Below, piece by piece: positions 1,097 through 16,118 of a DNA stretch of 17,533 nucleotides. The notes beneath the pieces were generated by a model. The model saw nothing but the letters and a program-made list of their open reading frames with translations, had not been told where the DNA came from and made no database searches. Position numbers and translations under genes: made by a program. Where the stretch lies: the IMG/VR virus record IMGVR_UViG_2711768056_000003, positions 1 to 17,533 of that record; one strand, written 5' to 3'. This stretch comes from a virus. Lineage: Duplodnaviria; Heunggongvirae; Uroviricota; Caudoviricetes. Position 1 is the first letter of the stretch. Every line of letters begins with the position of its first letter.

Positions 1097-1403
1097 CTTC
1101 TACTCCGGCTTTTTTAGCAGCGAAGCGTTTGATAAGCGAACCAATCGAGTCAGTACCGATGTAGCCAATGAACACGCTCGTTATATAAGCGAGATTGCTA
1201 CTTAGTCCGGCGAAGTCGAGAAGGTCACGAATGAACCAGGCGATAATGGCGCACATCGTTGCGTCGATTACTGTTTTTGTAAACGCACCGCCATTATATC
1301 TGCCGCGAAGGTACGCCATTGCAAACGCAAGGATTGCCCCGATGCCTTGTTCCTTTGCCGCGAGAATGGCGGCTAACAGGTCATGTTTTTCTGGCATCTT
1401 CAT
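1080..1403 (-). CDS. S: Holin S with dual start (Met1-Lys2-Met3: antiholin S107 / holin S105)
   Basis: 107 aa, [39 protein letters not shown]..., near-identical to lambda S; MKM dual-start motif present; three hydrophobic TM segments. Confidence 0.95.
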
Positions 1404-1998
1404 GTCTTACCCACAATAAGGGGATTTGCTCTATTTAATTAGGAATAAGGTCGATTACTGATAGAACAAATCCAGGCTACTGTGTTTAGTAATCAGATTT
1501 GTTCGTGACCGATATGCACGGGCAAAACGGCATGAGGTTGTTAGCGCAACCTCCTGCCACCGCTTTCACGAAGGTCATGTGTAGAAAGACGCAGCATAAC
1601 TATCACTGATGAATTCAGGATAGCCAGTGGCTACGGCTCAGGTTGGGTTGTGGCGGTCGGTGCTGAACTCCGACTTAATGACGATAGGCGTGTACCGACG
1701 CCTCGTTTTACTTCCTCCGCTTTCACGGCTTCACCCTAGACCAGCTTTACGAAATCCTCGTAAACCTAACCGCGGCAGATATGACCGGCACGGTGTGCCA
1801 TATCACGGACCGGCGGGTGTCTCGTTCACCTGATTAACGCATCAGCCTGCGTATTCACCACAACGATAAGAGCACTGCGCGGCACCTTTCACCAATTCCG
1901 CGAGGTCTGCGGGTTCAATGCTCTTACCTGTTGTGCAAACAAAAAAGCCACCGTTGCAACTTAAGAGTCACTAACGGCAGCTTACCCTCTAATTATGG
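1404..1998 (-). promoter_or_regulatory. Q-S intergenic region expected to carry late promoter pR', the Q-utilisation site and the late leader/terminator; exact elements not resolved
   Basis: Non-coding 595 bp between Q stop and S start, matching the lambda pR'-qut-tR' position; GC-rich and structured; the only long ORF (1627..1833) is Arg/Pro-rich junk. Confidence 0.45.
1941..1979 (-). terminator. Candidate intrinsic terminator just after Q stop
   Basis: Minus-strand RNA GCUGCCGUU-(17 nt loop)-AACGGUGGC followed by UUUUUU; 9-bp stem including two G-U pairs. The large loop makes it atypical. Confidence 0.35.
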
Positions 1999-2517
1999 CT
2001 AAATGGCTAATTGCATGTCAAGGCTTTTAACAGCAACATGCTTAACTTTCTCAACACGTTTACGCATTTTGAAAGCATTTTGCATTGGTTGGTACAAAAC
2101 AAATAATGACGCTTTCAGGATATCGTCAATTTCGTTTCTACAGGTTGCCAGTGAAGGTTTTCTCCATCCCTCGCCACCGCGTCCACACATCTTGCGTGGC
2201 TTTGCAGTCGCGTGATAGTAGGATGCAATTGCTCTCTTAGATGAACCATGAGCGTAGTAGCTGAGGAGGATGCCAAAGGCTTTCTTGTCAATGTACATGA
2301 CGGAATCGACGACCTGAGAAATCAACATTCCATCATCATCATTACACATTGGCCTTGTCATAATTCTTCCCGGCTCTACGCTCTCCATGAACTTCGCTAT
2401 TACGCTGCTCATGCGCTTTTCCAGACGACCTGAATAAACCCATGCGCCCCACAGTTCAAGCCAGCCATTCAGCCACTCGTGCTGCTCTTTGGTGAGGTTT
2501 AGTTCTCTTATGCTCAT
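1999..2517 (-). CDS. Q: Late-gene antiterminator Q (non-lambda Q family, phage 82 / QuuD-like)
   Basis: 172 aa immediately upstream of the lysis cassette; conserved LELWGAW and RPMCNDDDGM motifs plus YY pair that I recall from QuuD-type Q proteins. Confidence 0.8.
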   Translation of the reverse strand: MSIRELNLTKEQHEWLNGWLELWGAWVYSGRLEKRMSSVIAKFMESVEPGRIMTRPMCNDDDGMLISQVVDSVMYIDKKAFGILLSYYAHGSSKRAIASYYHATAKPRKMCGRGGEGWRKPSLATCRNEIDDILKASLFVLYQPMQNAFKMRKRVEKVKHVAVKSLDMQLAI

Positions 2518-2702
2518 CGTCTTCCCCTCTTGCCTTGTTTGACCATCAGGACGCCGTTAACTATTACGTGACGCTCGCCTTTGCTGTCTCGGTTGTACTT
2601 GAGCACTGTTCCTCTTGCGCAGGAAAGCATCCTCGCCACTTCGGTCTGATTGCCTCGTGTCTGGATAAGAAGCTCTGGTATCGTTTGAATTGTGGCGTTC
2701 AT
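2514..2702 (-). CDS. ninH: NinH (small HTH DNA-binding protein)
   Basis: 62 aa; ...TIPELLIQTRGNQTEVARMLSCARGTVLKY... parallels lambda NinH (GNQTEVARRL.CSRGTV.KY); ATGA start/stop overlaps with Q and rusA. Confidence 0.8.
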   Translation of the reverse strand: MNATIQTIPELLIQTRGNQTEVARMLSCARGTVLKYNRDSKGERHVIVNGVLMVKQGKRGRR

Positions 2703-3061
2703 GCGTTCTCCAGTTCGGTGATTTTTATTCCAAGCCGTCCGCCTGGTACTTTCACACCACGAATTACGCGAATGTCATCGAATTGCTCGTCGTCTTCCGC
2801 AAATCCGGCGTGGATAAGGGAGTCGAGTAAACCTTTCAGGATGTTATCGAGGTCGCGGCGGCGGGAGTCTGGAACGTCTGCGATGACTTTGATGCGGAGT
2901 CGTGATTTGGTGAAAATGTCTAACTTGAGTTGGCGGATGATTTGCTGAACGTCTTTTCGGTATTTCTGGCCTTTATCGCTGATGTAGTATTGGCTTCCCC
3001 GTCTTCGCCAGTAGGTGTTCACCGACGGCGGGTAAGGAAGCACAAACTGATATTCGTTCAT
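2699..3061 (-). CDS. rusA: RusA-family Holliday junction resolvase
   Basis: 120 aa; PPSVNTYW, DVPDSRRRDLDNILKGLLDSL and GGRLGIKITEL motifs match RusA of DLP12/lambdoid phages. Confidence 0.9.
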   Translation of the reverse strand: MNEYQFVLPYPPSVNTYWRRRGSQYYISDKGQKYRKDVQQIIRQLKLDIFTKSRLRIKVIADVPDSRRRDLDNILKGLLDSLIHAGFAEDDEQFDDIRVIRGVKVPGGRLGIKITELENA

Positions 3062-3348
3062 GGCTTAATCTTCCCCTCCTTCAGCAGGATCGCCTGCGTC
3101 CTGATCACGCCTTCGAGGTGATAAAGTCTGGCGTCTTTGTTGTCGAGATTATGGGTGCGTCGGTCGATTTCATCGTGACACGCGCTACAAGCCCATGCGC
3201 CAATCAGGTCGTCAGGTTTCATTCCCGTTCCGCAAATTCCAGCCATCCGGTAATGTGCCAGAACTGTAGTTTCAGGATTACCATTGCATACGCCGTAAAT
3301 ACGTACCTGGCATTCTCTGCCGCGTGCTTCTTTGCGTAGATTAGCCAT
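3058..3348 (-). CDS. DUF1364 / YbcO-like nin-region protein (Cys-rich, putative nuclease)
   Basis: 96 aa with conserved cysteines (CQVRIYGVCNGNPETTVLAH...CSACHDEID); typical position between roi and rusA in E. coli prophages. Confidence 0.65.
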   Translation of the reverse strand: MANLRKEARGRECQVRIYGVCNGNPETTVLAHYRMAGICGTGMKPDDLIGAWACSACHDEIDRRTHNLDNKDARLYHLEGVIRTQAILLKEGKIKP

Positions 3349-4070
3349 TAAGCAGCCTCCCCTGTTACTTTCAGCATTCCGTTATCGCGCAGCTTTCTGG
3401 TCAGCCACTGTTGACCACGCCCGGTGATTTTTGTGGTGAACGATATCTGTATTCCGTGATTTGTGTTGACCGCTGTTTCTTTCACTGTGAAATAGCCGCG
3501 ATCCATATATTCCTGCATTGGCACATTGCGCCGGGAACCTGAAGCAATAAGGATTTTGTGATCGCGCATCCACGCAAACAGTTTGTTTGGACCAATTCCA
3601 ACAACCTTTGCAAAGTTTCCAATCAAAATTCCGCTGGCCTCGCCAACGCGATCGGCAAACTCAACTTTAGGTGCGGCAATTGCGAGCTGGTTTTCCAGTT
3701 GCATTTTCTGCTCAGCAAGATCAGCAGCAAGGCGCAACGCTTCTGGTAGCGTTTTGGGGATATTAACCGCAGCTTCTTCAAGCTCTCGCCAACGGTCAAC
3801 AAGACGAGCGGTGAATTCCGGCGACAACTGAGCGACGACAATAATGCTGTCTCGCTTACCTTGTTCGCCCTCAAAAACGTAAGCCTCTACGCCACGAAGT
3901 AATCCTAAGTTATTGATTTTTTCGAAAACCACCATTGGGGGATTTCGGATCACACCTCGAGCCGCCAGTCGTTCAATAGATTGTTTCACCTTGTCATGAC
4001 GACTTCCCACCAACTCAGCGATTTCAATGCTTGTCATTTTGATGGCATTGCCATTTATTAACTCATTCAT
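3348..4070 (-). CDS. roi: Roi-like phage antirepressor / DNA-binding protein (Rha-like N-terminal domain + Ant/KilAC-like C-terminal domain)
   Basis: 240 aa; N-terminal HTH (MTSIEIAELVGSRHDKVKQSIERL) and C-terminal antirepressor-like domain; nin-region position as for HK022 roi. Confidence 0.75.
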   Translation of the reverse strand: MNELINGNAIKMTSIEIAELVGSRHDKVKQSIERLAARGVIRNPPMVVFEKINNLGLLRGVEAYVFEGEQGKRDSIIVVAQLSPEFTARLVDRWRELEEAAVNIPKTLPEALRLAADLAEQKMQLENQLAIAAPKVEFADRVGEASGILIGNFAKVVGIGPNKLFAWMRDHKILIASGSRRNVPMQEYMDRGYFTVKETAVNTNHGIQISFTTKITGRGQQWLTRKLRDNGMLKVTGEAA

Positions 4071-4239
4071 CGTCTTCTTCCTCGTACATTGAGCTATTCG
4101 GATCGCTCATCAGTTCTGCGCAGCAATCTGAGCACACGTGAACTTCCAGCACATGCAGCTTCTGACCGCAGTTAGCGCACGTTAAAGCCCGCTCGACGCT
4201 TTCTTTCTGGTATTGAATGGATTGGGATGGGCTAAGCAT
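4063..4239 (-). CDS. ninF: NinF (small Cys-rich protein)
   Basis: 58-aa ORF absent from the ORF track (below size cutoff), translated by hand: [58 protein letters not shown], very close to lambda NinF as I recall it; TAATG overlap with the upstream gene. Confidence 0.8.
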   Translation of the reverse strand: MLSPSQSIQYQKESVERALTCANCGQKLHVLEVHVCSDCCAELMSDPNSSMYEEEDDE

Positions 4240-4604
4240 TATTGGATTCTCTGCATCATGAGAAAGACAATCATGGCGGCGCGGAGGGGATTTTCATGTA
4301 TAGCTCGTTTAGATTTACAGTAGGCCACACCGCGTGCACCCCACTCGTCTTCATCGAGATTGATAATGCTAATCCTGTATTTTTCAATAATCGGCCATGC
4401 GTCTGCTGGGTTTGCGCATGGGTTAAAGGATCCGCGCTCAACTTCTACTTCAACTGCGTCTCCGTTTACAATGTCTCCCTCAAATGAGACAAACACCATA
4501 TCGCCATTCTCACCTTCTTTGTAATCCGGTGATCCGTTATGAATGGCTTCGAATACCGCCACGTTAATTTCAAAATCACTTAACTGTGAATAATCCATTG
4601 TCAT
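4239..4604 (-). CDS. Hypothetical acidic nin-region protein (start at MTMDYSQL...)
   Basis: ORF between ninE and ninF; ATGA overlap with the ninE stop; strongly acidic; no family recognised with confidence. Confidence 0.55.
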
Positions 4605-4777
4605 TTCCTCGCACGATGTCTTAGCCACCGGATATCCCACAGGTGAGCCGTGTAGTTGAAGGTTTTTACGTCAGATTCTTTTGGGATTGGCTTGCGTTTA
4701 TTTCTGGAGCGTTTCGTTGGAAGGTATTTGCAGTTTTCGCAGATGATGTCGGTGATACTTCGTCGCTGTCGCCTCAT
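4601..4777 (-). CDS. ninE: NinE
   Basis: Internal Met start gives [58 protein letters not shown], near-identical to lambda NinE; ATGA overlap with the upstream methylase gene. Confidence 0.85.
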
Positions 4778-5301
4778 GCCGCCCTCCTGACGCCCTGCCC
4801 GATCGCCATCAATGCCGCTTTGGATACGGTAGTAAACATCCGTCGAGGACTGATGAACGGTCGCCAAATCAGCAGCATGGAGCCTTTGCTGTTTCCCTTC
4901 TTCTCTAGCCCCGTCGATGGTTCGATAAAATTAATCCGTCCATCAGTGATAATACGAACTTCGTCAACACTCTCCAGAGCCTTGCTGAACCATCCGACTG
5001 ACATATCCTCTGGCACAAGCATAACTACCGTCTGTCGCTGTTGTATGCACTGCTCAGCGGCTTTTTCCACCCACGGCCTGATATTGCTGTACGGTGGGTT
5101 ATTCCAGATTGCACCGTGGCTTACCCACTCAGAATTGAGCGCGTCGTCGGCCTCAGTTAGCCAGTGAGCGCACAGAGCATTTTTGTCGCTCGCTGCCGAA
5201 TCCAGCCAGAATCCAAACTCAATATCCAGTGCATCAAAAAGCCAAAGCGGCGTTTGCCAGCAGTCCTTGTCGTGTGCTGGCGTATTTGATTTGATAGTCA
5301 T
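4774..5301 (-). CDS. Phage orphan N6-adenine DNA methyltransferase (Dam-like)
   Basis: Catalytic NPPY motif (WNNPPYSN); start at MTIKSNT... overlaps the ninB stop (ATGA); no adjacent restriction endonuclease gene. Confidence 0.8.
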
Positions 5302-5738
5302 GCAGCCCGATCTCCCCATCTCGCTTTCCACTCCAGAGCCAGTCTCGCTTCGTCTGACCACTTAACGCCACGCTCTGTACCGAATGCCTGTATAAGCTCT
5401 AATAGCTCCGCAAATTCGCCTACACGCATCCTGCTGGTTGACTGGCCTATTACCACAAAGCCATTCCCGGCAAGGTTAGGAACAACGTCCTGCTGCTTTA
5501 ATGCTGCGGTAAACACACACTTCCAGCTTTCTGCATCCAGCCAGCGACCATGCCATTCAACCTGACGAGAGACGTCACCAAGGCAAGCCCAAAGCTTTCG
5601 GTTTTGGTCTAAGCTGCGGTTGCGTTCCTGAATGGTTACTACGATTGGTTTGGTTGGGTCTGGAAGGATTTGCTGTACTGCGTGAATAGCGTTTTGCTGA
5701 TGTGCTGGAGATCGAATTTCAAAGGTTAGTTTTTTCAT
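5298..5738 (-). CDS. ninB: NinB (Orf-family recombination mediator)
   Basis: MKKLTFEIRSPAHQQNAIHAVQQILPDPTKPIVVTIQERNRSLDQNRKLWACLGDV... matches lambda NinB essentially throughout. Confidence 0.9.
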   Translation of the reverse strand: MKKLTFEIRSPAHQQNAIHAVQQILPDPTKPIVVTIQERNRSLDQNRKLWACLGDVSRQVEWHGRWLDAESWKCVFTAALKQQDVVPNLAGNGFVVIGQSTSRMRVGEFAELLELIQAFGTERGVKWSDEARLALEWKARWGDRAA

Positions 5739-5814
5739 GACTTCCCTCTCCCCCAAATAAAAAGGCCTGCGATTACCAGCAGGCCTGTTATTAGCTCAGT
5801 GATGTAGATGGTCA

Positions 5815-7251
5815 TCAGAATCCTCCTTTCTTCTTGGACTGCGGTTCCTCGCGTTCACGTCGGCGCATTTCAGCAGACTGTTGGTCTGTGTCATAAATAG
5901 CGCCATTTGCCTGAATGCAATACACCGTGCCGGTATTGCCATGACGATTGAGACGAAGGATTAGTTCGGTTTCACCAGGTGGAACACTGTCATCAAAAGC
6001 GCCTTCACGATGGATCCCAACCCAATAATCGCAATCCTGTTCAATCTGCCCTGTATCTCGTGAGTCACTTGGTAATGGGCGTTTATTGGTTCGGCTTTCC
6101 AGTGCGCGGTTAAGCTGCGTCAGAAGCACAACAACGCAATCAAGCTCTTTGGCAAGGTTCTTCAGTCCTTTGGTGATCATGCCGTAAGCAAGGTCGTTGC
6201 GATCGGCCTTCTCAGCGGTCATTAGTGTCAGGTAATCGACCAGAATCATGCCAACACATCCTTTTTCTCGCTTGATTCGACGGCTTTCGCTAACGATTTG
6301 AGCCAGAGATAATCCCGGCGTGTCGTCGATGTAAAGCAGGTCGATTTCACTCAAACGATTAGCTGTTTCGATCGCCCTGTTGAAGTCACCATCGTAATCA
6401 CCCTGATAGCCGTCATCAGCGTCATTTGTCGCCGGAAGGTAAAAAATATTCGGGTTAACACCAGACTTCTGCCCTACCAGTTTTTCCAGTATCTGATCAC
6501 CTGGCATTTCAAGGCTGAACATCAGAGCGGGCTTTTTCTCATGCACTGCGCAGTTGATTGCCATCTGGCTGTATAGCGTCGTTTTCCCCATCTTAGGGCG
6601 AGCGCCAATGACAAACAGAGAGCCTTTCACCAGACCTTTCGGTGACAGCATCCTGTCCAGCGATGGGATCCCTGTGCTCATTCCTCGTTGTTCGCCTGAC
6701 GGGTCAAATCGCTTCTCAAGGTCGCTAACCCAGTCTTCCATGACCTCACCAAATGAGCGAAGGCCGCGACGCGATCCGGTTTTTGCATGGTCTGTCAGTT
6801 GCGTGAAAATCGCCTGAATAGCTTCGTACTTCTGCGTTGCAGTCATTCCGTTGCGGGAATAGAGCAATTCCGTCGCTTCAGTCATGCGGTTGATGGCGTA
6901 GCGTTCCATTGCGGTTTCACGAACCTGCATTGCATAGGCAACGATGTTTGCTGCGCTTGGCGTATTCTTTGCGATCTCAGCGATATAAGCAAAACCGCCA
7001 ACAGACGCCGTTAACGATTTACGCTCCAGTTCATCGAAAAGCGTCAGGCCATCTACTGGCTTTTGCTCCCGGTGCATTCTGGTTATTTCTTCGAAAAGGA
7101 TTTTGTGTGGTCGGCTGTAAAATGAGTCAGGCTTCAGCATCGCCAGAACTTTCTGGACGCGCTCACTGCTGTCATCATCCAGAAGCAATCCACCAATCAC
7201 CGCCTGCTCTGCCTCGATGCTATGGGGCGGCGCATAAAAATTATCGGTCAT
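5815..7251 (-). CDS. DnaB-family replicative DNA helicase (P22 gp12-like)
   Basis: Walker A GARPKMGKTT; DnaB N-terminal motif SIEAEQAVIGGLLLD; ATG start at MTDNFY chosen rather than the GTG at 7266. Confidence 0.9.
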   Translation of the reverse strand: MTDNFYAPPHSIEAEQAVIGGLLLDDDSSERVQKVLAMLKPDSFYSRPHKILFEEITRMHREQKPVDGLTLFDELERKSLTASVGGFAYIAEIAKNTPSAANIVAYAMQVRETAMERYAINRMTEATELLYSRNGMTATQKYEAIQAIFTQLTDHAKTGSRRGLRSFGEVMEDWVSDLEKRFDPSGEQRGMSTGIPSLDRMLSPKGLVKGSLFVIGARPKMGKTTLYSQMAINCAVHEKKPALMFSLEMPGDQILEKLVGQKSGVNPNIFYLPATNDADDGYQGDYDGDFNRAIETANRLSEIDLLYIDDTPGLSLAQIVSESRRIKREKGCVGMILVDYLTLMTAEKADRNDLAYGMITKGLKNLAKELDCVVVLLTQLNRALESRTNKRPLPSDSRDTGQIEQDCDYWVGIHREGAFDDSVPPGETELILRLNRHGNTGTVYCIQANGAIYDTDQQSAEMRRREREEPQSKKKGGF

Positions 7252-8140
7252 CGTGTTCACCCTCACGAACTTTCAGGTAGGTATTATCGTTAAGCAGGAA
7301 ATCAAATCCCTTTTTGTGCCAGACGGTTCCGCGTTGATGGTTTGGGCGCTCTTCGAACATCCATCGGCAATTTTCGCCAACGTAGCTCAAATAATTTCTC
7401 CAGTCCTGCATCGTGAACCCATGCCCGTCAAGCTGGCGGGTTATCACTCCGGCTTTGCGCCAGAACGTTCGGATCTGGTTTTTACGCTTGTCATTCAGTG
7501 CGCGGATTCTTGGAGCTTCGGGAAGGATTTCGTGGTAAGCATCGACAACATCCTGACAGCTGACGGAAGGTTTTTTCTTGTCAGACTTTTTGTCTGCTGT
7601 GGCACTCTCTAATACGTCAGTATTAGAGATAATATTATTATATTCTTTATCTGTGGTAATTTGCTGGTAATCTGCTGGTACAGCATTGCTTACAGGCATT
7701 GGTATTGCTGGCTTTGAGGTGGTAATTTGCTGGTAATCTGCTGGTACAAAATTTGACTGATAATCGTCATATTTCTCTACCGAGAAAACTGAGAATTTAC
7801 CGTGTGAAACCCAGTCAATCATGCCGAGTTTTTTGAACTTTCTAAGCAGGTACTGAACGCGATCTGGTTTGAGTCCTGTTTCAAACGCCAGAGAGTTTCT
7901 ACCGCCAAGTAGCTTCCCTCTGCCTACCAGAATTTCTCCTGCGTCAGTCATTACATACTCAGGCGTATGCTTTGCTTTGAGGATTAAGTGAACCCACAGA
8001 TGCGCTGCTTCTGCATCCTTGTAAAACGGCACATCCATAATTTTACGGTGCAGCAAGGCATACCCCTTACCGCTGCTTTGATGCGGTTGTTGTAGCCTTC
8101 TGGCCTCTCTGGCTTCGGCTAGATTAGATATGTTACTCAT
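7241..8140 (-). CDS. Replication initiator (O-like: N-terminal DNA-binding domain, repeat-containing linker, DnaT-like C-terminal domain)
   Basis: Immediately upstream of the helicase and downstream of cII; linker contains duplicated peptide [10 protein letters not shown] encoded by the iteron repeats; C-terminal region resembles the helicase-loading domain of phage initiators. Confidence 0.8.
7615..7760. repeat. Candidate phage origin of replication: iterons plus adjacent AT-rich segment inside the initiator gene
   Basis: Two perfect 30-bp direct repeats GTGGTAATTTGCTGGTAATCTGCTGGTACA at 7653..7682 and 7729..7758, each built of TGCTGGTA sub-repeats; further TTGCTGG copies between; AT-rich stretch 7620..7650 on the C-terminal side, as at lambda ori. 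Confidence 0.6.
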
Positions 8141-8279
8141 GACCTTTCTCCTTCTGCATCAGCTTCACTTTTTCCAACTCAGCCCGGAATCGACCAGGCT
8201 GCTTGAAGCTGGACAGGAAGCGATCACGTAGTATGTGTTTGTGAATTTTGTCCTGGTAAGGACTGAGTTGTTTTGTCAT
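8133..8279 (-). CDS. Small basic hypothetical protein (48 aa) between cII and the initiator gene
   Basis: Hand-translated [48 protein letters not shown]; SD AGGAG 7 nt upstream of ATG; stop overlaps the initiator start codon. Confidence 0.45.
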
Positions 8280-8311
8280 AATTACTCCTGTGGATTGATC
8301 CAGTAATTCCC

Positions 8312-8608
8312 TCAGAATTGCATATCAATTTGCTTAAAATCCTCGGTGGCGGCCGGGGATTTTTTCTTTGTGATTTCATCAAGCGCATACTTAAAAGCCC
8401 TGCTAATCGGACTGATGTCTGATGCCATTCCGAAAGCACACAAGACCGAAGCAATAAATCTCCAGTCCGTTCTGCTTATCTTCGATTCATGACAGCCAAT
8501 CATCTTTGCCAGACCGCGCTGGGTAAGCGTTGACAGGTTGATGAGTAAATCAGTTTCAGCGCGATCAACGTCACGCTGTGATAGTTTGCTGTAACTTGTT
8601 CTTTCCAT
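8312..8608 (-). CDS. cII: CII-like transcriptional activator
   Basis: 98 aa; C-terminus [18 protein letters not shown] parallels lambda CII KKRPAATERSEQIQMEF; HTH region present; located between cro and the replication genes. Confidence 0.8.
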
Positions 8609-8693
8609 TTCTTAAGATTTCCAATAGTGAATAGTTAGTTGAAAGGTATGCGTGGAAACGCATATGGCCTTGGTTGGTCAGATATTCTGGGAT

Positions 8694-8739
8694 TCGCTTT
8701 TCAGCGACGTAGGACGAATGTCCGTTGTTACAAAGAGCG
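8694..8739 (-). promoter_or_regulatory. nutR candidate (boxA, small hairpin, boxB hairpin)
   Basis: Minus-strand RNA 8 nt after the cro stop: CGCTCTTTGTAACAAC (boxA-like), GGAC-auuc-GUCC, uacg, then UCGCU-GAAA-AGCGA (5-bp stem, GAAA tetraloop); same architecture as the nutL candidate. Confidence 0.6.
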
Positions 8740-8746
8740 GGGTTAC

Positions 8747-8974
8747 TTATGCTGCCAGAAGGTTCTTTTTGCTTATTTCAAGCAATTCGCTTGCTTGATA
8801 TTTGCCACCAGAAATCTCTTCGATTTTTGAGGCGTATTTCGTTTTCCCAAAAAACTCAGTCTTAGGGAGGAAGCCGTTTTTGAGCCACTTATAGACAGCC
8901 CTTTCGCTAACTCCACAAGCCTTCGCAACTTCAGGGATGCCGACACCTTTAATCGGCTCATCAAGATTTTGCAT
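8747..8974 (-). CDS. cro: Cro-like repressor (HTH)
   Basis: 75 aa with HTH (IPEVAKACGVSERAVYKWLKNG); divergent from cI across the operator region; SD AAGGG upstream. Confidence 0.75.
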   Translation of the reverse strand: MQNLDEPIKGVGIPEVAKACGVSERAVYKWLKNGFLPKTEFFGKTKYASKIEEISGGKYQASELLEISKKNLLAA

Positions 8975-9053
8975 AGGAATATCCCTTTTTCGTACTTTTA
9001 GTACGCATTATGGTTGAACTGAAAGTTTTTGCAAGTGCTTTAGTATCGTACTC
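8975..9053. promoter_or_regulatory. OR switch region: PR for cro on the minus strand, PRM for leaderless cI on the plus strand, candidate operators
   Basis: PR: -35 TTGCAA (9029..9034), 16-bp spacer, -10 CATAAT (minus strand of 9007..9012). Candidate operators: CGTACTTTTAGTACG (8991..9005) and TTTAGTATCGTACTC (9039..9053). cI ATG has no SD. Confidence 0.6.
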
Positions 9054-9761
9054 ATGGTTCAGAATGAAAAAGTGCGCAAAGAATTCGCCCAGCGGCTAGC
9101 GCAAGCCTGTAAAGAAGCTGGTCTTGATGAACATGGTAGGGGTATGGCCATAGCCCGTGCCCTTTCTCTTTCGTCCAAAGGCGTTAGCAAATGGTTTAAT
9201 GCTGAGTCTTTACCGCGTCAGGAAAAAATGAATGCGCTTGCGAAATTTCTAAACGTTGATGTTGTTTGGCTTCAGCACGGCACTTCGTTAAATGGAGCGA
9301 ATGATGAAGATACTCTTTCATTTGTTGGCAAATTAAAAAAAGGGTTAGTGCGCGTGGTTGGTGAGGCAATTCTTGGTGTTGATGGTGCCATCGAGATGAC
9401 CGAAGAGCGCGATGGGTGGCTCAAGATTTATAGTGATGATCCAGATGCCTTTGGTCTTCGTGTGAAAGGAGACAGCATGTGGCCCAGAATAAAATCAGGA
9501 GAATATGTACTCATTGAGCCTAACACCAAAGTATTCCCGGGTGATGAGGTGTTTGTCAGAACCATCGAAGGACACAACATGATCAAGATTCTTGGCTATG
9601 ACAGAGATGGAGAATACCAGTTTACAAGCATCAACCAAGACCACAGACCAATAACGTTGCCTTATCATCAAGTAGCAAAGGTGGAGTATGTGGCTGGTAT
9701 TCTGAAGCAGTCCCGCCATCTGGATGACATCGAGGCAAGGGAGTGGCTGAAAAGTTCGTGA
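9054..9761 (+). CDS. cI: CI prophage repressor (N-terminal HTH + C-terminal LexA/S24-like autocleavage domain)
   Basis: 235 aa; N-terminal HTH; C-terminal domain with GDSMWP serine motif and downstream lysine typical of S24 self-cleaving repressors; divergent from cro. Confidence 0.9.
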   Translation: MVQNEKVRKEFAQRLAQACKEAGLDEHGRGMAIARALSLSSKGVSKWFNAESLPRQEKMNALAKFLNVDVVWLQHGTSLNGANDEDTLSFVGKLKKGLVRVVGEAILGVDGAIEMTEERDGWLKIYSDDPDAFGLRVKGDSMWPRIKSGEYVLIEPNTKVFPGDEVFVRTIEGHNMIKILGYDRDGEYQFTSINQDHRPITLPYHQVAKVEYVAGILKQSRHLDDIEAREWLKSS

Positions 9762-9878
9762 CTTCATCGTCACATAGCTGGTAACCAATGGCCTGAAGAG
9801 ACGTTTGGGTGATATATGTGAAATGCATATATTGATATAAATGCAGCAATATCAAATAGTTAAAAGGTTATATTTTTA

Positions 9879-10259
9879 ATGAATGATCTTGATAAGAAAA
9901 AGTACGACCAAGTTATTGATTCTGTGAACTTCGCCCTTAGATCGTTGTCAGAGTTATTCGAAGCCCATGGAATGCATGGGATGTATGATCTAACGAATCC
10001 AAGCCTTGATGAGCTAAAATTAGTGTTTACAAGGATGAAAAACGGTGTTGACTCTATTGCTCAAAGCTTTGAGCACATGGTAGAGACAGCAAAGGATATG
10101 GATGCCGCAAGTGCAAGCATAAATGTTATGAACATCAAACAAGGATTGATGTATGCTGAATCACTATTGCTTGCTGTAGAGAAATTAGACTATGATAAAT
10201 GTGTGGAAGCAAATACGCAGATAAAAACCCACGATCTTCCACCAACCCAATGGCCTTAA
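9879..10259 (+). CDS. Hypothetical 126-aa protein in the rex position (candidate lysogen-expressed cargo gene)
   Basis: ORF directly downstream of cI on the same strand, in a visibly AT-rich segment; predicted soluble, helical; no family recognised. Confidence 0.6.
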   Translation: MNDLDKKKYDQVIDSVNFALRSLSELFEAHGMHGMYDLTNPSLDELKLVFTRMKNGVDSIAQSFEHMVETAKDMDAASASINVMNIKQGLMYAESLLLAVEKLDYDKCVEANTQIKTHDLPPTQWP

Positions 10260-10328
10260 TAGTAAATCAAGATTTCATATAGTCTATTTGAACTAGGCTA
10301 GTACCATAAAATAAACCGAGGAAACGCA

Positions 10329-10430
10329 ATGAAAACCATGTCCACTCTGCACAAAGATGCAATGACCCTGAGATCTCTCATTAACGAGATTCTGGCTCGC
10401 TCGTCAGCACACACCAAAAAAGCCGCATAA
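10329..10430 (+). CDS. Small hypothetical ORF (33 aa) downstream of the 126-aa gene
   Basis: Hand-translated MKTMSTLHKDAMTLRSLINEILARSSAHTKKAA; SD GAGGA 7 nt upstream; followed within 11 nt by an intrinsic terminator. Confidence 0.4.
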   Translation: MKTMSTLHKDAMTLRSLINEILARSSAHTKKAA

Positions 10431-10440
10431 TGCCTACATA

Positions 10441-10469
10441 ACCCGGCCTCAGCGCCGGGTTTTCTTTGC
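10441..10469 (+). terminator. Rho-independent terminator closing the cI-side (immunity) transcription unit
   Basis: ACCCGGC-cucagc-GCCGGGU (7-bp GC-rich stem) followed by TTTTCTTT. Confidence 0.7.
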
Positions 10470-10636
10470 CTCACGATCGCCCTCCCATATTTAATAGCCG
10501 CAAATGTGGTAAACCGCGAACCAACTCACCAGCAATAACCACTCCAACTACAGACCAATCTGCAGCATTTACAAAAATAAATTTCCTTATATATCAAAAT
10601 CATATATCGCAGCATTAATAAATCACAAAATTTCGT

Positions 10637-10676
10637 ACCAATAGTTCTTGATAATGTCGAACTATTGGTTCATTAT
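10637..10676 (+). promoter_or_regulatory. Candidate pL promoter overlapped by a perfect inverted repeat (candidate operator)
   Basis: -35 TTGATA (10648..10653), 17-bp spacer, -10 CATTAT (10671..10676); 11-bp perfect inverted repeat ACCAATAGTTC (10637..10647) / GAACTATTGGT (10659..10669) spans the -35 and spacer; TTTCGTAC upstream shares an 8-mer with OR. Confidence 0.45.
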
Positions 10677-10722
10677 TGTCACATCAGCAGGACGCTGGAA
10701 GCCAAACGGAACAGACTGGCAG

Positions 10723-10768
10723 GCTCTTTAAACAACGTCGAACTCTCGACTACGTGGCTGAAAAGCCA
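10723..10768 (+). promoter_or_regulatory. nutL candidate (boxA, small hairpin, boxB hairpin)
   Basis: GCTCTTTAAACAACG (boxA-like, rrn-boxA-like), GTCGA-acuc-UCGAC, uacg, then UGGCU-GAAA-AGCCA (5-bp stem, GAAA tetraloop); between pL and N. Confidence 0.6.
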
Positions 10769-10866
10769 GATCACCCAACCACATAAGCTGTGGGATGCAA
10801 TGCCGAAGCAACCGTCTCAGGAGGGGCTTCGAGATTGCATCGCCAAAGTTTATTCGGGAGGAATCT

Positions 10867-11139
10867 ATGTCCAGAAAAACAGAATTTAAAGGCACCGCAG
10901 CTTCTCGCCGTAGAGCTCGTCGTGCAAATCTGCAAAGTCAGGAGGCGATCAGCTCCGACAAGCTACACAGGCCAACCCCTTCACGAGTGGTCTTGCAATG
11001 CAAGCGCAAACCAGCAATGAGAGCAGAAGTAATAACACTGACAACGTTGACCAGAAAATATGAAGGCTCAACTTGTCTTCCAAACGTAGCTCTTTACGCG
11101 GCAGGCTACCGTAAATCCAAACAACTGACAGCGAGGTAA
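10867..11139 (+). CDS. N: N-like transcription antiterminator (arginine-rich motif)
   Basis: Start at MSRKTEFKGTAASRRRARRANLQ with ARM resembling lambda/P22 N; SD GGGAGG upstream; first gene after pL/nutL. Confidence 0.75.
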   Translation: MSRKTEFKGTAASRRRARRANLQSQEAISSDKLHRPTPSRVVLQCKRKPAMRAEVITLTTLTRKYEGSTCLPNVALYAAGYRKSKQLTAR

Positions 11140-11141
11140 TT

Positions 11142-11594
11142 ATGGATTTAAGTAAATTAGAAAGCTCTTTGGAAGCATCAGTAAAAAAATTTATATCAGT
11201 AATTGATGAAAAAACTGAAGATATTAAGAAAGCAAATATTATCGAACTTGTAGAAACAAGAACCAGCACATTTGAACATCTTCCTGATGATGTCCGGTCA
11301 GCGGCAATTCACGTATATGTAACGGCACTAAGCAATATTGAACCCCCAATTGATGAAGAATCAAGAGATATTCAGAGAAAACGACTTGAAATGTTAGCCA
11401 GCAACATTATCGCTGGTTTCACACGGCTCTTAGCAAAAAAGCCTGCCAGTGAAGCTATTCGCCAGCAGGCTCAGGTAATGATTAATCAGGCAGAAACTAT
11501 TTCACGTGAGCGAAAAGCATTTGATAAATCGGTTTCTGAACTTCCAACACCTCAACCGCAGCCGCTGAACCTTCCTTCTCAACAAACTGAATAA
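11142..11594 (+). CDS. Hypothetical 150-aa protein, translationally coupled to N (ral/sieB position)
   Basis: Starts 2 nt after the N stop with SD GAGG; AT-rich 5' half; C-terminal 98 bp overlap a convergent minus-strand ORF. Confidence 0.5.
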   Translation: MDLSKLESSLEASVKKFISVIDEKTEDIKKANIIELVETRTSTFEHLPDDVRSAAIHVYVTALSNIEPPIDEESRDIQRKRLEMLASNIIAGFTRLLAKKPASEAIRQQAQVMINQAETISRERKAFDKSVSELPTPQPQPLNLPSQQTE

Positions 11595-11751
11595 CTTCAT
11601 CAAGATTCTTTTTTGCATTTGTTGATTGCTCAGGCGGCATAGCAGAAACAATCGAAATGATTGCTTGCTGGAGCGCGAGGTTTTCAGTGCTCAGTTTTGA
11701 AACTCTGTCGTTTAAATCCTCAATGATTTTAACAAGAGATACATCTGACAT
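11497..11751 (-). CDS. Hypothetical 84-aa protein encoded antisense to the pL operon
   Basis: Strong SD AAGGAG 6 nt upstream of ATG; helical, coiled-coil-like sequence; opposite orientation to all neighbouring early-left genes. Confidence 0.5.
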   Translation of the reverse strand: MSDVSLVKIIEDLNDRVSKLSTENLALQQAIISIVSAMPPEQSTNAKKNLDEVIQFVEKEGSAAAVEVLEVQKPIYQMLFAHVK

Positions 11752-11764
11752 GTGAACTCCTTAT

Positions 11765-11811
11765 TTTGACTGTGGAAACAACAGTCTACCCATTTCCTTT
11801 GACTGTGGAAA
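11765..11811. repeat. Two perfect 14-bp direct repeats TTTGACTGTGGAAA, the first overlapping a 6-bp-stem hairpin
   Basis: Copies at 11765..11778 and 11798..11811; GACTGT (11768..11773) pairs with ACAGTC (11781..11786); immediately upstream of the 84-aa minus-strand gene start. Confidence 0.6.
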
Positions 11812-11961
11812 GTGAAGGAACCACCGAGCCTGATGTGGTTAAAAGACAGGCACACTAATAAACACTGCACTGTGTATTCATTCCAACGAGTGAATACACG
11901 GAGCAATGTCGCTCGTAACTAAACAGGAGCCGACTTGTTCTGATTATTGGAAATCTTCTTT

Positions 11962-11988
11962 GCCCTCCTATGTGAGGGCAATTTTTTG
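11962..11988 (+). terminator. Rho-independent terminator (tL1-like) in the pL operon
   Basis: GCCCTC-cuaugu-GAGGGC followed by AATTTTTTG; directly precedes the SD of the next gene. Confidence 0.6.
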
Positions 11989-11999
11989 ACGGAGGATAT

Positions 12000-12311
12000 A
12001 TGAAATTACGTGTCTGGCATATCCCGCAAGTACCTATGAAGCCGTTCATTGTAGAAGTGGCAAGTGTTGAAGAGGGTGTTCGCCTGATGGACGCACTGGC
12101 TGATTATGACGCCTTTCAGTATGACAACAACATCAAGCCTGATTACTGCAATGCTAACGGCCTTGAGATGTGGGATGAGAGCCTTACCGATGAAGATTTA
12201 TCAGAGATGGGGCTTACTGATCGCTGGGTGGATTGGTACAGCGAATGCCAATGTTACGACGACCCACGTAAATATCTCGAAAGCCTGAAAGAAGAAACAT
12301 CAGCCGCCTAA
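12000..12311 (+). CDS. Hypothetical strongly acidic 103-aa protein
   Basis: SD GGAGG 5 nt upstream; large excess of Asp/Glu over Lys/Arg; early-left operon position. Confidence 0.6.
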   Translation: MKLRVWHIPQVPMKPFIVEVASVEEGVRLMDALADYDAFQYDNNIKPDYCNANGLEMWDESLTDEDLSEMGLTDRWVDWYSECQCYDDPRKYLESLKEETSAA

Positions 12312-12386
12312 GCGCGGCTTTACCGCATACCAATAACGCTTCACTCGAGGCGTTTTCGTTATGCAATCAAACAGAAGGAGCATCCT

Positions 12387-12557
12387 ATGCAACAGTTCGC
12401 TATTGCAGGGGCGGCATCGGTTCGCCCTTTCAACCCGATTTTATCGGTACAGCATTCACGAAAAAATATTTTAACCGGAGCAGACTTTAAACAACCAAGA
12501 ATGAAAAGTTTGCTCGAAAAGCTTTGGGATATTTTGAAACAACAAGGCCGTCCATGA
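12387..12557 (+). CDS. cIII: CIII-like protein (FtsH/HflB inhibitor protecting CII)
   Basis: Hand-translated 56 aa MQQFAIAGAASVRPF...LLEKLWDILKQQGRP; N-terminal MQ.AIAG and C-terminal L.DIL.Q.G.P parallel lambda CIII; SD AAGGAG. Confidence 0.65.
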   Translation: MQQFAIAGAASVRPFNPILSVQHSRKNILTGADFKQPRMKSLLEKLWDILKQQGRP

Positions 12558-12664
12558 GTTTTACAGATAACTGGTCAGACGAAGAATTCATTCGTCAGAT
12601 GAACAAAATGCTCAATCAGCACAAAGAACAGGAGAAAGATGATGATTCTGACTCTGAAAGATGA
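12554..12664 (+). CDS. Small acidic ORF (36 aa), translationally coupled to cIII (kil position)
   Basis: ATGA overlap with the cIII stop; MSFTDNWSDEEFIRQMNKMLNQHKEQEKDDDSDSER; overlaps the start of the next ORF in another frame. Confidence 0.3.
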   Translation: MSFTDNWSDEEFIRQMNKMLNQHKEQEKDDDSDSER

Positions 12665-12950
12665 GCGTGAAATATCGCAAATAATCGCAAGTTTTACTGA
12701 TGAAGATTACGAACGAATCAAAAGTGAAGTTGATCGCCTCTGCAAACGTTGCGACCCAATAAGCGAAATGCTTCGCTCATATAAACCAGATGAACACACT
12801 AAGGACGCTATCGACTGGCTGGAAGATTATGACTGTAACTATCAGGAAAAAGCCGCTGAATGGTTCTGGGATGCAATAACCGAAAGAGTTAAGGCTGAAT
12901 ATGCCTTCGCAATATTCAAACGCAGACATATTTATGGAGAAGCTGCATGA
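12639..12950 (+). CDS. Hypothetical 103-aa protein upstream of recT
   Basis: Long ORF with ATGA overlap to recT; acidic; no family recognised. Confidence 0.55.
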   Translation: MMILTLKDEREISQIIASFTDEDYERIKSEVDRLCKRCDPISEMLRSYKPDEHTKDAIDWLEDYDCNYQEKAAEWFWDAITERVKAEYAFAIFKRRHIYGEAA

Positions 12951-13858
12951 GCAATATCGTTGAATTCGTTAAACAGCAAGAGCAGTTATTCTGCGGAGCA
13001 TTGACTGAACAGACGGTGACATGGGCTAAGGAAAGCCAGTTTGCAATTCAGTATTTCCAGAAAAATGATTACCTGGCTAAAACGGCACTGGCAAATCCAA
13101 CCAGCGCACAGAACGCCATCATCAATGTTGCGGCGATCGGCATCACCTTAAACCCGGCCAGCAAACTGGCTTATCTGGTTCCTCGCGACGGCATGGTGTG
13201 CCTTGATATCAGTTATATGGGATTGCTCCATATTGCAATGGAGTCTGGTGTTATCTCATGGGGTCAGGCAAAACTTGTTCATGCTAACGATACCTATGAG
13301 TCAAACGGGCTTGATAAAGCACCAACCCATAAATACAACGCCTTCGGTGATCGTGGTGATATCGTTGGCGTTTACTGCACAGTTAAGACGCCAGCAGGTG
13401 ATTATCTAACGGAAGAGATGAGTCTGGCTGAAATTGAGGCTGTAAGGAAAACAAGCAAGGCGGCATTCAGCGATAAAGGACCATGGGTAAATCACTGGAA
13501 TGAGATGGCGCGAAAGACGGTCGTAAAGCGTGCAAGCAAGTATTGGCCTAAGGCATCACGTCTTGATAGTGCTATTCACGTACTAAACGAAGAAGAAGGT
13601 GTGTGGACTGAACCAGTTATGCCGCACAAATCAGAGGAAGATATCCGCGAAGATGAACGGAAACGCCAGCAGGAAATAACGGATAAAGCACAACTTCTTT
13701 GCGATGAAATGGCTCAGGCAGAAAACATGGATGATTTGAAGCGATATTTTGCAGAAGCATATCGCCTGACATCTGGAATGAAATTGCAGCAGAACGTACA
13801 AGCCATTTACATAGAATGCAAAGCGAAACTGGAGGTTGCCAGTGAGCAAACTGTATGA
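12947..13858 (+). CDS. recT: RecT-family single-strand annealing recombinase
   Basis: 303 aa; GPWVNHWNEMARKTVVKRASKYWP parallels Rac RecT GPWVTHWEEMAKKTAIRRLFKYLP. Confidence 0.9.
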   Translation: MSNIVEFVKQQEQLFCGALTEQTVTWAKESQFAIQYFQKNDYLAKTALANPTSAQNAIINVAAIGITLNPASKLAYLVPRDGMVCLDISYMGLLHIAMESGVISWGQAKLVHANDTYESNGLDKAPTHKYNAFGDRGDIVGVYCTVKTPAGDYLTEEMSLAEIEAVRKTSKAAFSDKGPWVNHWNEMARKTVVKRASKYWPKASRLDSAIHVLNEEEGVWTEPVMPHKSEEDIREDERKRQQEITDKAQLLCDEMAQAENMDDLKRYFAEAYRLTSGMKLQQNVQAIYIECKAKLEVASEQTV

Positions 13859-14324
13859 AATAGCCAATGAATACGCAAAGCTGATGGATTCAGATTTAGA
13901 GCCAGAGATGATTGCTGACACAATAGAAGGCATGGAAGGAGAATTTACCGATAAAATAGAGCAACTTCTTGCCATTATTAAAAATGAATCTGGTTATGCT
14001 GAACGCCTCAAGGAAGAGGCAAAGTCACTGAATGAGCGAGCCGCAGTAATTCAAAATAAGATTGAGAGCATCAAATCATATATAGCGTCATCGCTTGAAA
14101 TGGTTGGCAAGAAAAAGATTCGAGCAGGTATTCACCAGGTAACAATCCGCAAACCGTCAGAAACTGTAGAAATCATCGACTCAAGCGCCCTTCCTCCTGA
14201 ATACGTTGAGTTTGAAACGACAATTAAAGCCGACAAACTGGCAATCAAACACCAACTAAAAGCAGGAATAAATATCCCCGGCGCTCAACTCAAAGTTGGG
14301 AAACCTTCACTTCTTATCAAATAA
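13842..14324 (+). CDS. Gp157/Gam-like protein (possible host-nuclease inhibitor); GTG start
   Basis: About 160 aa with N-terminal coiled coil; SD GGAGG 6 nt before GTG at 13842; overlaps the recT 3' end; family assignment from memory only. Confidence 0.5.
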   Translation: MSKLYEIANEYAKLMDSDLEPEMIADTIEGMEGEFTDKIEQLLAIIKNESGYAERLKEEAKSLNERAAVIQNKIESIKSYIASSLEMVGKKKIRAGIHQVTIRKPSETVEIIDSSALPPEYVEFETTIKADKLAIKHQLKAGINIPGAQLKVGKPSLLIK

Positions 14325-14335
14325 CGGTATCGACT

Positions 14336-14650
14336 ATGAAAAAGACTCCATGGGAGAAATGGGAAGTCGATTTCTTGCGCGAGGTAGCGGCGACAATGCC
14401 AGTTGAAGTTATCGCTGAAAAACTGGAAAGGACTGAAAAAGCAGTAATGGCGAAAGCAACAAGGATTGGCGCTGACATTGTTAGCCGACTTCGTGGAAGA
14501 CGATGGACAAGAGCCGAAGTATCACTTTTCGGTAAGTTCTCCGCAGAAGAAATAGCAATTGCAACCTGCCGCTCAATTTATTCAGTAAGAGCTATGCGAT
14601 ACAAGCTAAAAAAACTCGATGAAGAAAGAGCAGGCATACGAATAAATTAA
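14336..14650 (+). CDS. Hypothetical 104-aa protein with an internal tandem duplication of an HTH-like segment
   Basis: Residues WEKWEVDFLREVAATMPVEVIAEKLERTEKAVMAKATRIG and RRWTRAEVSLFGKFSAEEIAIATCRSIYSVRAMRYKLKKL share a repeated pattern. Confidence 0.6.
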   Translation: MKKTPWEKWEVDFLREVAATMPVEVIAEKLERTEKAVMAKATRIGADIVSRLRGRRWTRAEVSLFGKFSAEEIAIATCRSIYSVRAMRYKLKKLDEERAGIRIN

Positions 14651-14666
14651 CATGGAGTAATTAACA

Positions 14667-14948
14667 ATGAAGCTAAACATCGACCTTGGAAAATACGTTA
14701 TTACCGGAACCAAACACGACCTGATTCTTAGCGAAAGAGGAATTATCAAAGAAGGTGAGAATGCAGGGAAAGAAACACTAAGCCGTATCGGTTATTACAG
14801 CAAGTTTGAGCATCTGGTTAAAGAGTTATGCAACCGTGAAATCCTGTTATCTCAGGCGCAGACGCTACAGGATATTCAGCAGCATATCGAGACTTTAGGT
14901 GTGTCACTTAGCATGGCCGTTGACCAGTTCGTGGAGAGTAAATCATGA
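14667..14948 (+). CDS. Hypothetical 93-aa protein
   Basis: ORF with SD GGAG upstream in a tightly packed operon; no family recognised. Confidence 0.55.
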
Positions 14949-15109
14949 GAGGACTTGCATACAATCCCGGCATTCTTCCGGCAGAAATGATTATTCTCCA
15001 ACGCGTAAAGCCAATGCCATCGAGAGAGGAATTGCTTAAGAGAAATTCTTTTCCGTCAGTAAATCAAAACAAATATCTGAATGCGATGTGGCGGAGTGGG
15101 AAGAAATGA
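14945..15109 (+). CDS. Small hypothetical ORF (54 aa), translationally coupled
   Basis: ATGA overlap with the upstream gene stop and ATGA overlap with the downstream gene start; [54 protein letters not shown]. Confidence 0.35.
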
Positions 15110-15579
15110 AACAAATGTCACTAATTGAGATAGATGGTTTTCTGAAAGGTAAATGCATCCCACGAGATTTAAAGGTTAACGAAACAAACGCTGAATATCT
15201 TGTCCGTAAGTTCGGTGAACTTGAATCAAAACTGGAAACGGCGTTGCGGGAGTGCCGTTCTGCTGGAATCACGATTGATAACCTTGAAGCAAAGTGCGCG
15301 GCGCTGGCTGCTGAAAAAGAGAAATTCGCTGTCGAATGTGCAGCAACAAAGATCGCCATTGCGTATCTGAAATCAGGCCGACAGGACTTTTCACTTAACA
15401 CCCCAGCCACCGATGCTTTCCTGGCTGAAGTGCGGGCGCAGGGGGTGGAGATGTTTGCACAGAAATGTAACTCAAAATCCGAACAGTCATTTGCATCTGA
15501 TATACGCGATAACTGGAAACTACTCGGTGAACATGCCACTGACTTTGCCGCAGAGCTTCGCAAAGGAGACAACCAGTGA
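15106..15579 (+). CDS. Hypothetical 157-aa protein (start at [11 protein letters not shown])
   Basis: Long ORF; ATG at 15106 preferred over the GTG at 15088; helical, coiled-coil-like. Confidence 0.55.
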
Positions 15580-16115: not shown

Positions 16116-16118
16116 CCC

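Follow-up and report, generated by a model that had tools for sequence, protein, structure and literature searches.

Introduction

All delayed-early genes of lambdoid prophages are under the control of antitermination by the N protein at nut sites, and so, via Q, is the expression of Shiga toxin (Stx). The closest described relatives of the sites treated here are those of phages H-19B and 933W, in which a boxA region is followed by ACAAY, a spacer hairpin, UACG, and a boxB of 5 base pairs (bp). Neely and Friedman (Mol Microbiol 2000, 38:1074) reportedly found in the H-19B nut spacers a dyad symmetry that other nut sites do not have. Disruption of one arm of the dyad is said to inactivate the site, and compensatory changes to restore it; H-19B N itself reportedly requires NusA, but not NusB, S10, or boxA. 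Here we analyze a stretch of 17,533 nucleotides (nt; hereafter the window), positions 1 to 17,533 of IMG/VR virus record IMGVR_UViG_2711768056_000003 (Caudoviricetes). The sequence represents the early control region of a lambdoid prophage, inverted with respect to the lambda map. It carries two genuine nut sites of the H-19B architecture, nutR and nutL, which are a specificity variant of that type. We document their position, their covarying RNA helices, their co-occurrence with N, and a boxB loop class that tracks a motif of N.

Much of this is already known. The architecture has been published: H-19B nutR (AF034975) reads CGCUAUUUUCACAAU GGAC-AUUC-GUCC UACG UCGCU-GACAA-AGCGA and is described with two hairpins, of which N with NusA/NusG protects the spacer and boxB, but not boxA (PMC3526286). 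The corresponding stretches are annotated as nutR and nutL in the 933W record, and the exact sequences of the window occur in well-known Stx phages. The tetraloop hairpin has likewise been annotated in Salmonella phages, the 14-nt hairpin of the window nutR being labeled 'Putative NutR' in the g341c record. In the epsilon34 genome paper, the N terminus was taken to predict 'a novel BoxB specificity' (PMC2629481). The boxB loops of lambda, P22, and phi21 are described as pentaloops or hexaloops that mimic the GNRA fold (PMC12550061). Two aspects appear under-described: the joint presence of a genuine GNRA tetraloop, a lambda-like arginine-rich motif that has no Trp, and a short N whose sites keep a consensus boxA; and an apparent trade-off between boxA and a central module of N. 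A search of the open literature, with incomplete coverage, turned up no natural boxB described as having a GNRA tetraloop, and an earlier description is possible. The basic picture of nut-site function is unchanged by our results.

Two nut sites with a spacer hairpin and a tetraloop boxB

Direct reading of the nutR RNA (- strand, 8739..8694) gives CGCUCUUUGUAACAAC, GGAC-AUUC-GUCC, UACG, and UCGCU-GAAA-AGCGA, exactly the strings quoted in a preliminary description of this locus. The first C of its boxA, at 8739, is the 8th nucleotide after the cro stop codon, with seven bases between. The nutL RNA (+ strand, 10723..10768) reads GCUCUUUAAACAAC, GUCGA-ACUC-UCGAC, UACG, and UGGCU-GAAA-AGCCA, and ends approximately 100 nt upstream of the N start. 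It thus repeats the nutR architecture at the positions given before. The stem differences between the two boxB hairpins had been called compensatory, and they are: one swapped pair, C-G in nutR and G-C in nutL. Both boxA elements (CGCUCUUUG in nutR and GGCUCUUUA in nutL) fit the consensus (C/U)GCUCUU(U)A, and both boxB loops are 4-nt G-N-R-A loops closed by a Watson-Crick pair. The placement is that expected of nut sites: nutR follows cro on the PR transcript, and nutL lies on the PL transcript between its promoter and N.

The similarity to H-19B extends beyond the sites themselves. The cro-cII spacer of the window aligns over its full length with those of H-19B and 933W and is nearly identical to them, the nut core differing only in boxA and one lost loop nucleotide. 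The nutR spacer hairpin (GGACAUUCGUCC), the UACG, and the UCGCU/AGCGA stem match base for base. The N proteins are homologous at the N-terminus (M[ST]R[RK]T.F.G), in an HRPT.SR motif, and at the C-terminus (CLPNVALYAAGYRKSKQLTAR). They belong to the same Pfam family, and tblastn aligned the window N with the 933W/H-19B N at 40% identity over its full 90 amino acids (aa; E = 9e-12). The differences are confined to a few features. The boxB loop is GAAA (4 nt) in the window and GACAA (5 nt) in H-19B. The arginine-rich motif of N is RRRARRANLQ in the window versus RRRERLKAKALA in H-19B. The window N has 90 aa versus 127 aa, and is without the central QAKG..EYRRNLERAAIVYANEFG module. Finally, boxA has the consensus sequence at both window sites, whereas H-19B has CGCUAUUUU in nutR and none in nutL.

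Phage lambda is more distant. It shares the boxA CGCUCUU, a 5-bp boxB stem closed by U-A, a G...A purine loop, and the same genomic positions. The arginine-rich motif of lambda N shares RRR.RRA..Q.Q with that of the window N, and its NRPILSL stretch, which lies in the NusA-binding region, resembles HRPTPSR of the window N. As had been noted, lambda has pentaloops (GAAAA and GAAGA in the fetched sequence) and a boxA closer to boxB, with an unstructured spacer of 7-9 nt compared with 24 nt in the window nutR. Lambda further differs in a two-U boxA (CGCUCUUA[A]), in Trp18 of N, and in the C-terminal RNA-polymerase region of N, which is unrelated to that of the window N. The sites had been called a distinct nut variant. 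This holds relative to lambda; as a layout they are the published H-19B type, identical nutR spacer hairpin included, and only the tetraloop, the matching arginine-rich motif of N, and the intact boxA set them apart from the H-19B prototype.

Other systems share subsets of these features. P22, where gp24 is N, has an rrn-type boxA (CGCUCUUUA), a boxB stem of the form xxGCU/AGCxx, and a homologous N C-terminus (LPGVALYAAGHRKSKQITAR). It differs in its GACAA pentaloop, in its arginine-rich motif (TRRHERRRKLAIER), and in having no flush spacer hairpin, ACAAC, or UACG. Epsilon34 and g341c have the same 14-nt nutR boxB and the same spacer hairpin as the window, CGGCU-GAAA-AGCCG at nutL, and an arginine-rich motif of the same class (RRRERRAALQ). 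They differ in a long N of 120 aa, a degenerate boxA at both sites, and the nutL spacer hairpin GAUUCA-GUGA-UGAAUC. The window nutL GCUCUUUAAACAA resembles the E. coli rrn boxA, GCUCUUUAACAA, plus one extra A. The rrn leader differs in the order boxB-boxA-boxC and in needing no N protein; in the window, boxA comes before boxB and N is encoded. A third U in boxA is an rrn feature that one study links with higher affinity for NusA (PMC2724277).

Each of the two divergent early transcripts carries one copy of the pattern ACAACG-N(8-20)-CUACG-NN-GCUGAAAAGC, making two in the window, against 0.00 expected from 200 shuffles. An Rfam scan of the whole window at the gathering threshold returned no family, a result that is uninformative about nut sites. 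Each of the four short hairpins folded alone as had been proposed (-3.8, -5.7, -4.3, and -6.3 kcal/mol). The hairpins are nevertheless small (4-5 bp), and the folding z-scores of the isolated 46-mers were modest (-1.7 and -2.9), as would be seen if functionless short palindromes had arisen by chance near a boxA-like string. Against this stand the two occurrences of the pattern where none is expected, and the conservation of the elements, with compensatory changes, in hundreds of loci spanning E. coli, Shigella, Salmonella, Citrobacter, and Tatumella. We put the probability of a chance resemblance close to nil.

Covariation of both helices

Relatives of the two sites were drawn from phage records, GTDB genomes, and two IMG/VR scans with DNA patterns. 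An initial IMG/VR set collected by N homology consisted of 80 near-identical N genes, which were good for comparing loop with stem variation but poor for covariation, and we therefore switched to the pattern scans. These fixed ACAAY, CUACG, and the inner boxB pairs (GCY/RGC). The pentaloop pattern was loose and gave mostly chance matches, which were filtered by pairing and by the presence of a downstream N gene. A scan of genome contigs added 5 loci, three of which (Citrobacter, Tatumella, and Pantoea) were useful as outgroups. In total 46 distinct core sites were collected, one clear chance match was dropped, and the remaining 45 were aligned. These sites belong to elements of E. coli, Shigella, Salmonella, Citrobacter, and Tatumella, and are not phylogenetically independent of one another.

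Both local helices are under selection as RNA structure. The core of the spacer helix was 98.9% paired across the 45 sites, with double changes at three of its four pairs. At least ten different spacer stems were found (including GGAC/GUCC, GGCC/GGCC, GGCA/UGCC, GGACG/UGUCC, GUCGA/UCGAC, GGUGA/UCACC, GAUUCA/UGAAUC, and GAAGAU/AUCUUC), all of them flush between ACAAY and UACG. Among the approximately 80 near-identical phages, the nutL spacer varied in its loop (CUC, ACUC, ACAC, AUC, or GCAC) on a fixed stem. The boxB helix was 93.8% paired, with double changes at four of five pairs and stems that included UCGCU, UGGCU, AGGCU, CGGCU, UAGCU, CAGCU, GCGCU, and UGGCC. The covariation score was 0.576, compared with 0.142 in shuffled alignments (0 of 500 reached 0.576) and 0.01-0.11 when the pairing partners were slid.

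Among matches whose spacer and outer boxB pairs had been left unconstrained by the search, a spacer stem of 4 bp or more sat flush in 37 of 41 (5% in shuffles), and both outer boxB pairs were present in 36 of 41. G-U pairs also occurred, which argues for pairing at the level of RNA rather than DNA. At three sites the U-A pair closing the boxB loop is replaced by C-G (UGGCC-GAAA-GGCCA), indicating that the loop is truly four nucleotides long; other relatives have UGGCU-GCAA-AGCCA. ACAA was invariant at the 45 distinct sites, with C or U as the fifth base, and so was UACG, both being single-stranded flanks of the helices, but ACAAY, CUACG, and the inner boxB pairs were search anchors, so that their invariance is partly by construction and weakens the case to that extent.

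The comparative data also bear on how nutR folds. For the isolated 46-nt nutR, the two-hairpin fold (-11.1 kcal/mol) is 0.4 kcal/mol less stable than the minimum free energy structure (-11.5 kcal/mol), in which boxA pairs with the 3' arm of boxB. This counts against the proposed structure, and as the two folds are almost isoenergetic, thermodynamics alone leaves the choice undecided and comparative data decide. The rival pairing of boxA (CGCU/GGCU) with the boxB arm (AGCG/AGCC) could constitute a structural switch in which binding of N or Nus factors selects the fold. Besides being the more stable by calculation, it draws support from the base before GCU, which matches the boxB arm at both window sites, and from the phrase 'alternative NUT RNA structures' in the title of the H-19B paper. 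Only 13 of the 27 sites that have a boxA could, however, form the fourth pair, which disappears with every change of the boxB stem (UGGCU, UAGCU, or AGGCU with CGCU), and long-N relatives are mostly without boxA. In addition, boxA is transcribed first while the spacer hairpin and boxB are local, so that the latter should fold co-transcriptionally. We rejected the boxA:boxB-arm fold for its absence of covariation support, and consider the switch extremely unlikely.

The boxB loop class follows the arginine-rich motif of N

The window N belongs to Pfam family PF25694 N_peptide (E = 3.4e-32). Properly paired sites had only GAAA, GCAA, or GACAA as boxB loops. The tetraloop search pattern allowed all eight GNRA loops, of which GAAA or GCAA alone appeared at paired sites. 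Each loop class was accompanied by its own class of N. Downstream of all GAAA/GCAA nutL sites lay an N with RRRx[RQH]R[AS]x[LVM]Q, in 29 motif variants on scaffolds of 90 aa and 115-132 aa. Downstream of all GACAA nutL sites lay an N with RRRE[RL]LK[AV]KALANG. Within loci, the loop classes of nutL and nutR were concordant in 165 of 166 cases where both sites were found.

The motif of the tetraloop class matches lambda N at 9 of 16 positions (AASRRRARRANLQSQE versus AQTRRRERRAEKQAQW). A phmmer search of the window N against PDB sequences gave nothing at E <= 10, the arginine-rich motif being too short for such a match. Judged by its letters, the window loop has the canonical GNRA tetraloop sequence itself and not that of a mimic. 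If bound as proposed below, it would be a natural case of an arginine-rich helix reading a canonical GNRA tetraloop in place of a penta- or hexaloop mimic. One nucleotide of loop length separates two N classes that look non-cross-reacting and share the same nutR RNA, which would make them a clean specificity-swap system.

An alternative is that the first, or spacer, hairpin is the N-binding boxB and that the GAAA hairpin serves another purpose, for example stability or Rho loading. Both stem-loops are short with strong covariation, and the nutR spacer hairpin is invariant across three N classes. Yet this one hairpin serves N proteins with different arginine-rich motifs, and spacer loops vary freely, both within one N type (above) and across types (AUUC, GUCC, UGGA, and AGUGAU). 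Only the second loop is restricted and tracks the motif. In H-19B, moreover, the boxB loop G is protected only with N plus NusA/G (PMC3526286). We regard the assignment of boxB to the spacer hairpin as very improbable, and treat the second hairpin as boxB.

A few loci depart from the common pattern. IMG/VR contig 2563366943_000008 carries three tandem nut-like elements on one strand (1500-1800, +). This locus alone combines both loop classes; downstream of the elements, no N gene was recognised. Its first element has the tetraloop CAGCU-GAAA-AGCUG with a good boxA and is followed by an rrn-type boxA. The other two have GCGCU-GACAA-AGCGC, each followed by UUGCUCU, in the boxB-then-boxA order of rrn leaders. 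In the Salmonella phages Oslo and SPN9CC (L090, ~4820-4880, and L091), the nutL spacer hairpin and UACG are followed by GCUCC-GUCAA-CGAGC, with a C-C apposition at the loop-closing position, as also in P22 nutR (CCGCC-GACAA-CGCGG). The nutR of these two phages is UCGCU-GACAA-GGCGA, with a U-G closing pair.

boxA and the length of N

Among relatives with a short N, a boxA-like GCUCUUU (GUUCUUU in two Citrobacter-type variants) was present at all distinct sites, 37 of 37 for nutL and 25 of 25 for nutR, with GCUCUUU itself at 25/25 nutR sites. In elements with a long N, boxA was absent from nutL in 27 of 28 cases and from nutR in 10 of 17. In long-N phages (120-127 aa; e.g. L001 at 4775-4795, L003 at 4835-4858, and L332), the nutL boxA position is occupied by a small inverted repeat, UCACC-AGGNC-GGUGA. 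The long N proteins also contain a central module, QAKG.H.TP..IE.A...F.AQD..WQ..EY[RK]R..ER, which is absent from the window N. The link between loss of boxA and presence of the module was nearly perfect in our sample.

That boxA is always kept with the 90-aa N and lost at nutL with the long N suggests that the central module replaces the contact of boxA with NusB/NusE. We tentatively propose, as a possibility short of a probable one, that the short-N system is a natural 'minimal' N/nut pair in which a Trp-less lambda-like helix reads a true GNRA tetraloop, while in long N proteins the module functionally replaces the boxA-NusB/NusE contact. If true, this would explain the reduced host-factor requirement reported for H-19B N and would predict a window N that depends on NusB and S10. 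From the sequences, we hold such NusB/S10 dependence of the window system to be evenly balanced between yes and no. The association of boxA with N length nonetheless offers a testable handle on why H-19B-type N needs fewer host factors.

Proposed mechanism

Taken together, these comparisons make it very probable that both elements function as nut sites and that the second hairpin is boxB. In the model we favor, the arginine-rich helix at the N-terminus of the 90-aa N would bind boxB (nutR UCGCUGAAAAGCGA, nutL UGGCUGAAAAGCCA) in a lambda-like manner. The rrn-like boxA GCUCUUU would most likely recruit NusB/NusE(S10). The spacer hairpin may fold away 12-14 nt and so bring ACAAC and UACG, and hence boxA and boxB, together as in lambda; the effective distance between boxA and boxB would fall from 24 nt to 12 nt, near the 7-9 nt of lambda. 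NusA would engage N and the ACAAC/UACG spacer, the conserved HRPT.SR of N resembling NRPILSL of lambda N. With NusA and NusG, this RNA-protein complex would stay tethered to RNA polymerase and carry it past the terminators of the early operons. We consider the role of the spacer hairpin as a reducer of distance, an idea put forward for H-19B, somewhat more probable than not.

Several points weigh against this model. N binding, the use of Nus factors, and antitermination by this N and these sites are inferred by homology. The window N is without Trp, so that the stacking contact of lambda Trp18 on the loop cannot be copied exactly. The association between loop class and N motif comes from few independent lineages, and the pentaloop class is essentially one clade. 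Deletion of the H-19B dyad is reported by Neely and Friedman to have little effect, whence the name 'reducer'. If deletion is indeed harmless, the spacer hairpin is not strictly required, and the reducer idea leaves its strong conservation partly unexplained.

Conservation of the region could also reflect termination, were it mainly a Rho-loading (rut)/tR1 or processing site. Lambda nutR is flanked by rutA and rutB according to its annotation, Rho footprints on the H-19B nutR spacer (PMC3526286), and a conserved hairpin annotated in g341c as a putative tR lies approximately 30 nt downstream of the nutR boxB. The same RNA is, however, both nut and rut in lambda and H-19B, so that Rho loading is compatible with nut function. 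The recurrence of the architecture at nutL upstream of N, and a loop class that covaries with the N motif, would be unexpected for a pure Rho site. We therefore judge a mainly Rho-directed or processing role unlikely, and retain nut function as the preferred reading.

The downstream hairpin itself (8664-8647, -) reads UAUGCG-UUUCCA-CGCAUA, and CCUUUCAAC follows. Both H-19B and 933W conserve the hairpin, and the g341c copy has a changed loop and a stem extension. It probably belongs to the tR1 region, which N has to override. A terminator scan of the window did not flag it.

Genomic context and distribution

The features of the window are collected in Table 1. The gene order cII, cro, PR / cI ... 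PL, nut, N is the canonical order of an immunity region, and the position of the candidate PL agrees with the PL annotated in relatives.

Table 1. Positions of the nut-site elements, candidate promoters, and genes in the window.
Feature	Position	Strand	Description
nutR boxA	8731..8739	-	CGCUCUUUG, rrn-type, three U
nutR ACAAC	8724..8728	-	5' flank of spacer hairpin
nutR spacer hairpin	8712..8723	-	GGAC-AUUC-GUCC; the H-19B 'reducer', same 12 nt in H-19B and 933W nutR
nutR UACG linker	8708..8711	-	
nutR boxB	8694..8707	-	UCGCU-GAAA-AGCGA; 5-bp stem, GNRA tetraloop
nutL boxA	10722..10731	+	GGCUCUUUAA; runs on into ACAAC (10732-10736)
nutL spacer hairpin	10737..10750	+	GUCGA-ACUC-UCGAC
nutL UACG linker	10751..10754	+	
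nutL boxB	10755..10768	+	UGGCU-GAAA-AGCCA
Candidate PL	10648-10676	+	TTGATA-17-CATTAT; 46 nt upstream of nutL boxA; consensus scan only
Candidate PR	9034-9007	-	TTGCAA-16-CATAAT; upstream of cro; consensus scan only
Q	1999-2517	-	
Antirepressor, DnaB-like helicase, O		-	
cII	8312-8608	-	
cro	8747-8974	-	75 aa helix-turn-helix protein; stop codon 8749..8747
cI	9054-9761	+	
N	10867-11139	+	90 aa; arginine-rich motif at approximately residues 9-25 (GTAASRRRARRANLQSQ)
RecT, Ea22-like genes		+	

The N/nut module of the window is carried by several Stx1 and Stx2 phages. Its N is 100% identical to those of Stx1-converting phage NC_004913, phage 2851, YYZ-2008, and Stx2 phage 1717. In E. coli, 823 of 5,426 complete genomes (~15%) contained the stretch from nutL to N, and both sites were present in all 80 IMG/VR contigs with a nearly identical N. 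Two contigs assigned to other hosts look like misbinned or contaminant enterobacterial phage DNA. A 3.5-kb contig in a Segatella copri metagenome-assembled genome (JAJXBQ010000280.1) contains an E. coli-type N (98% identical) and both nut sites, and a 394-bp Xanthomonas pisi contig (NZ_JPLE01000327.1) encodes an H-19B-like N with 41% identity to the window N.

Several further features surround PL, nutL, and N. Upstream of PL and downstream of the open reading frames on the cI side is a strong intrinsic-terminator-like hairpin (10440-10461, +) of 8 bp, six of them G-C, followed by UUCUUU. In the 933W record, the repressor-transcript terminator tM is annotated at this position. The PL-nutL-N unit is flanked by open reading frames of 126 aa (9879-10259, +) and 150 aa (11142-11594, +), which have no Pfam match and lie where the rex/immunity-region morons and the first post-N gene are located.

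The N leader between nutL and the N start (10775-10862, +) forms a single long stem-loop, with -42.3 kcal/mol for 10769-10880 and a z-score of -4.45; none of 200 shuffles was as stable. Its outer pairs extend into the GGGAGGA Shine-Dalgarno region. The stem-loop recalls the lambda N leader, which has an RNase III-sensitive hairpin controlling N translation. The H-19B N leader has a different sequence with similar long-range complementarity.

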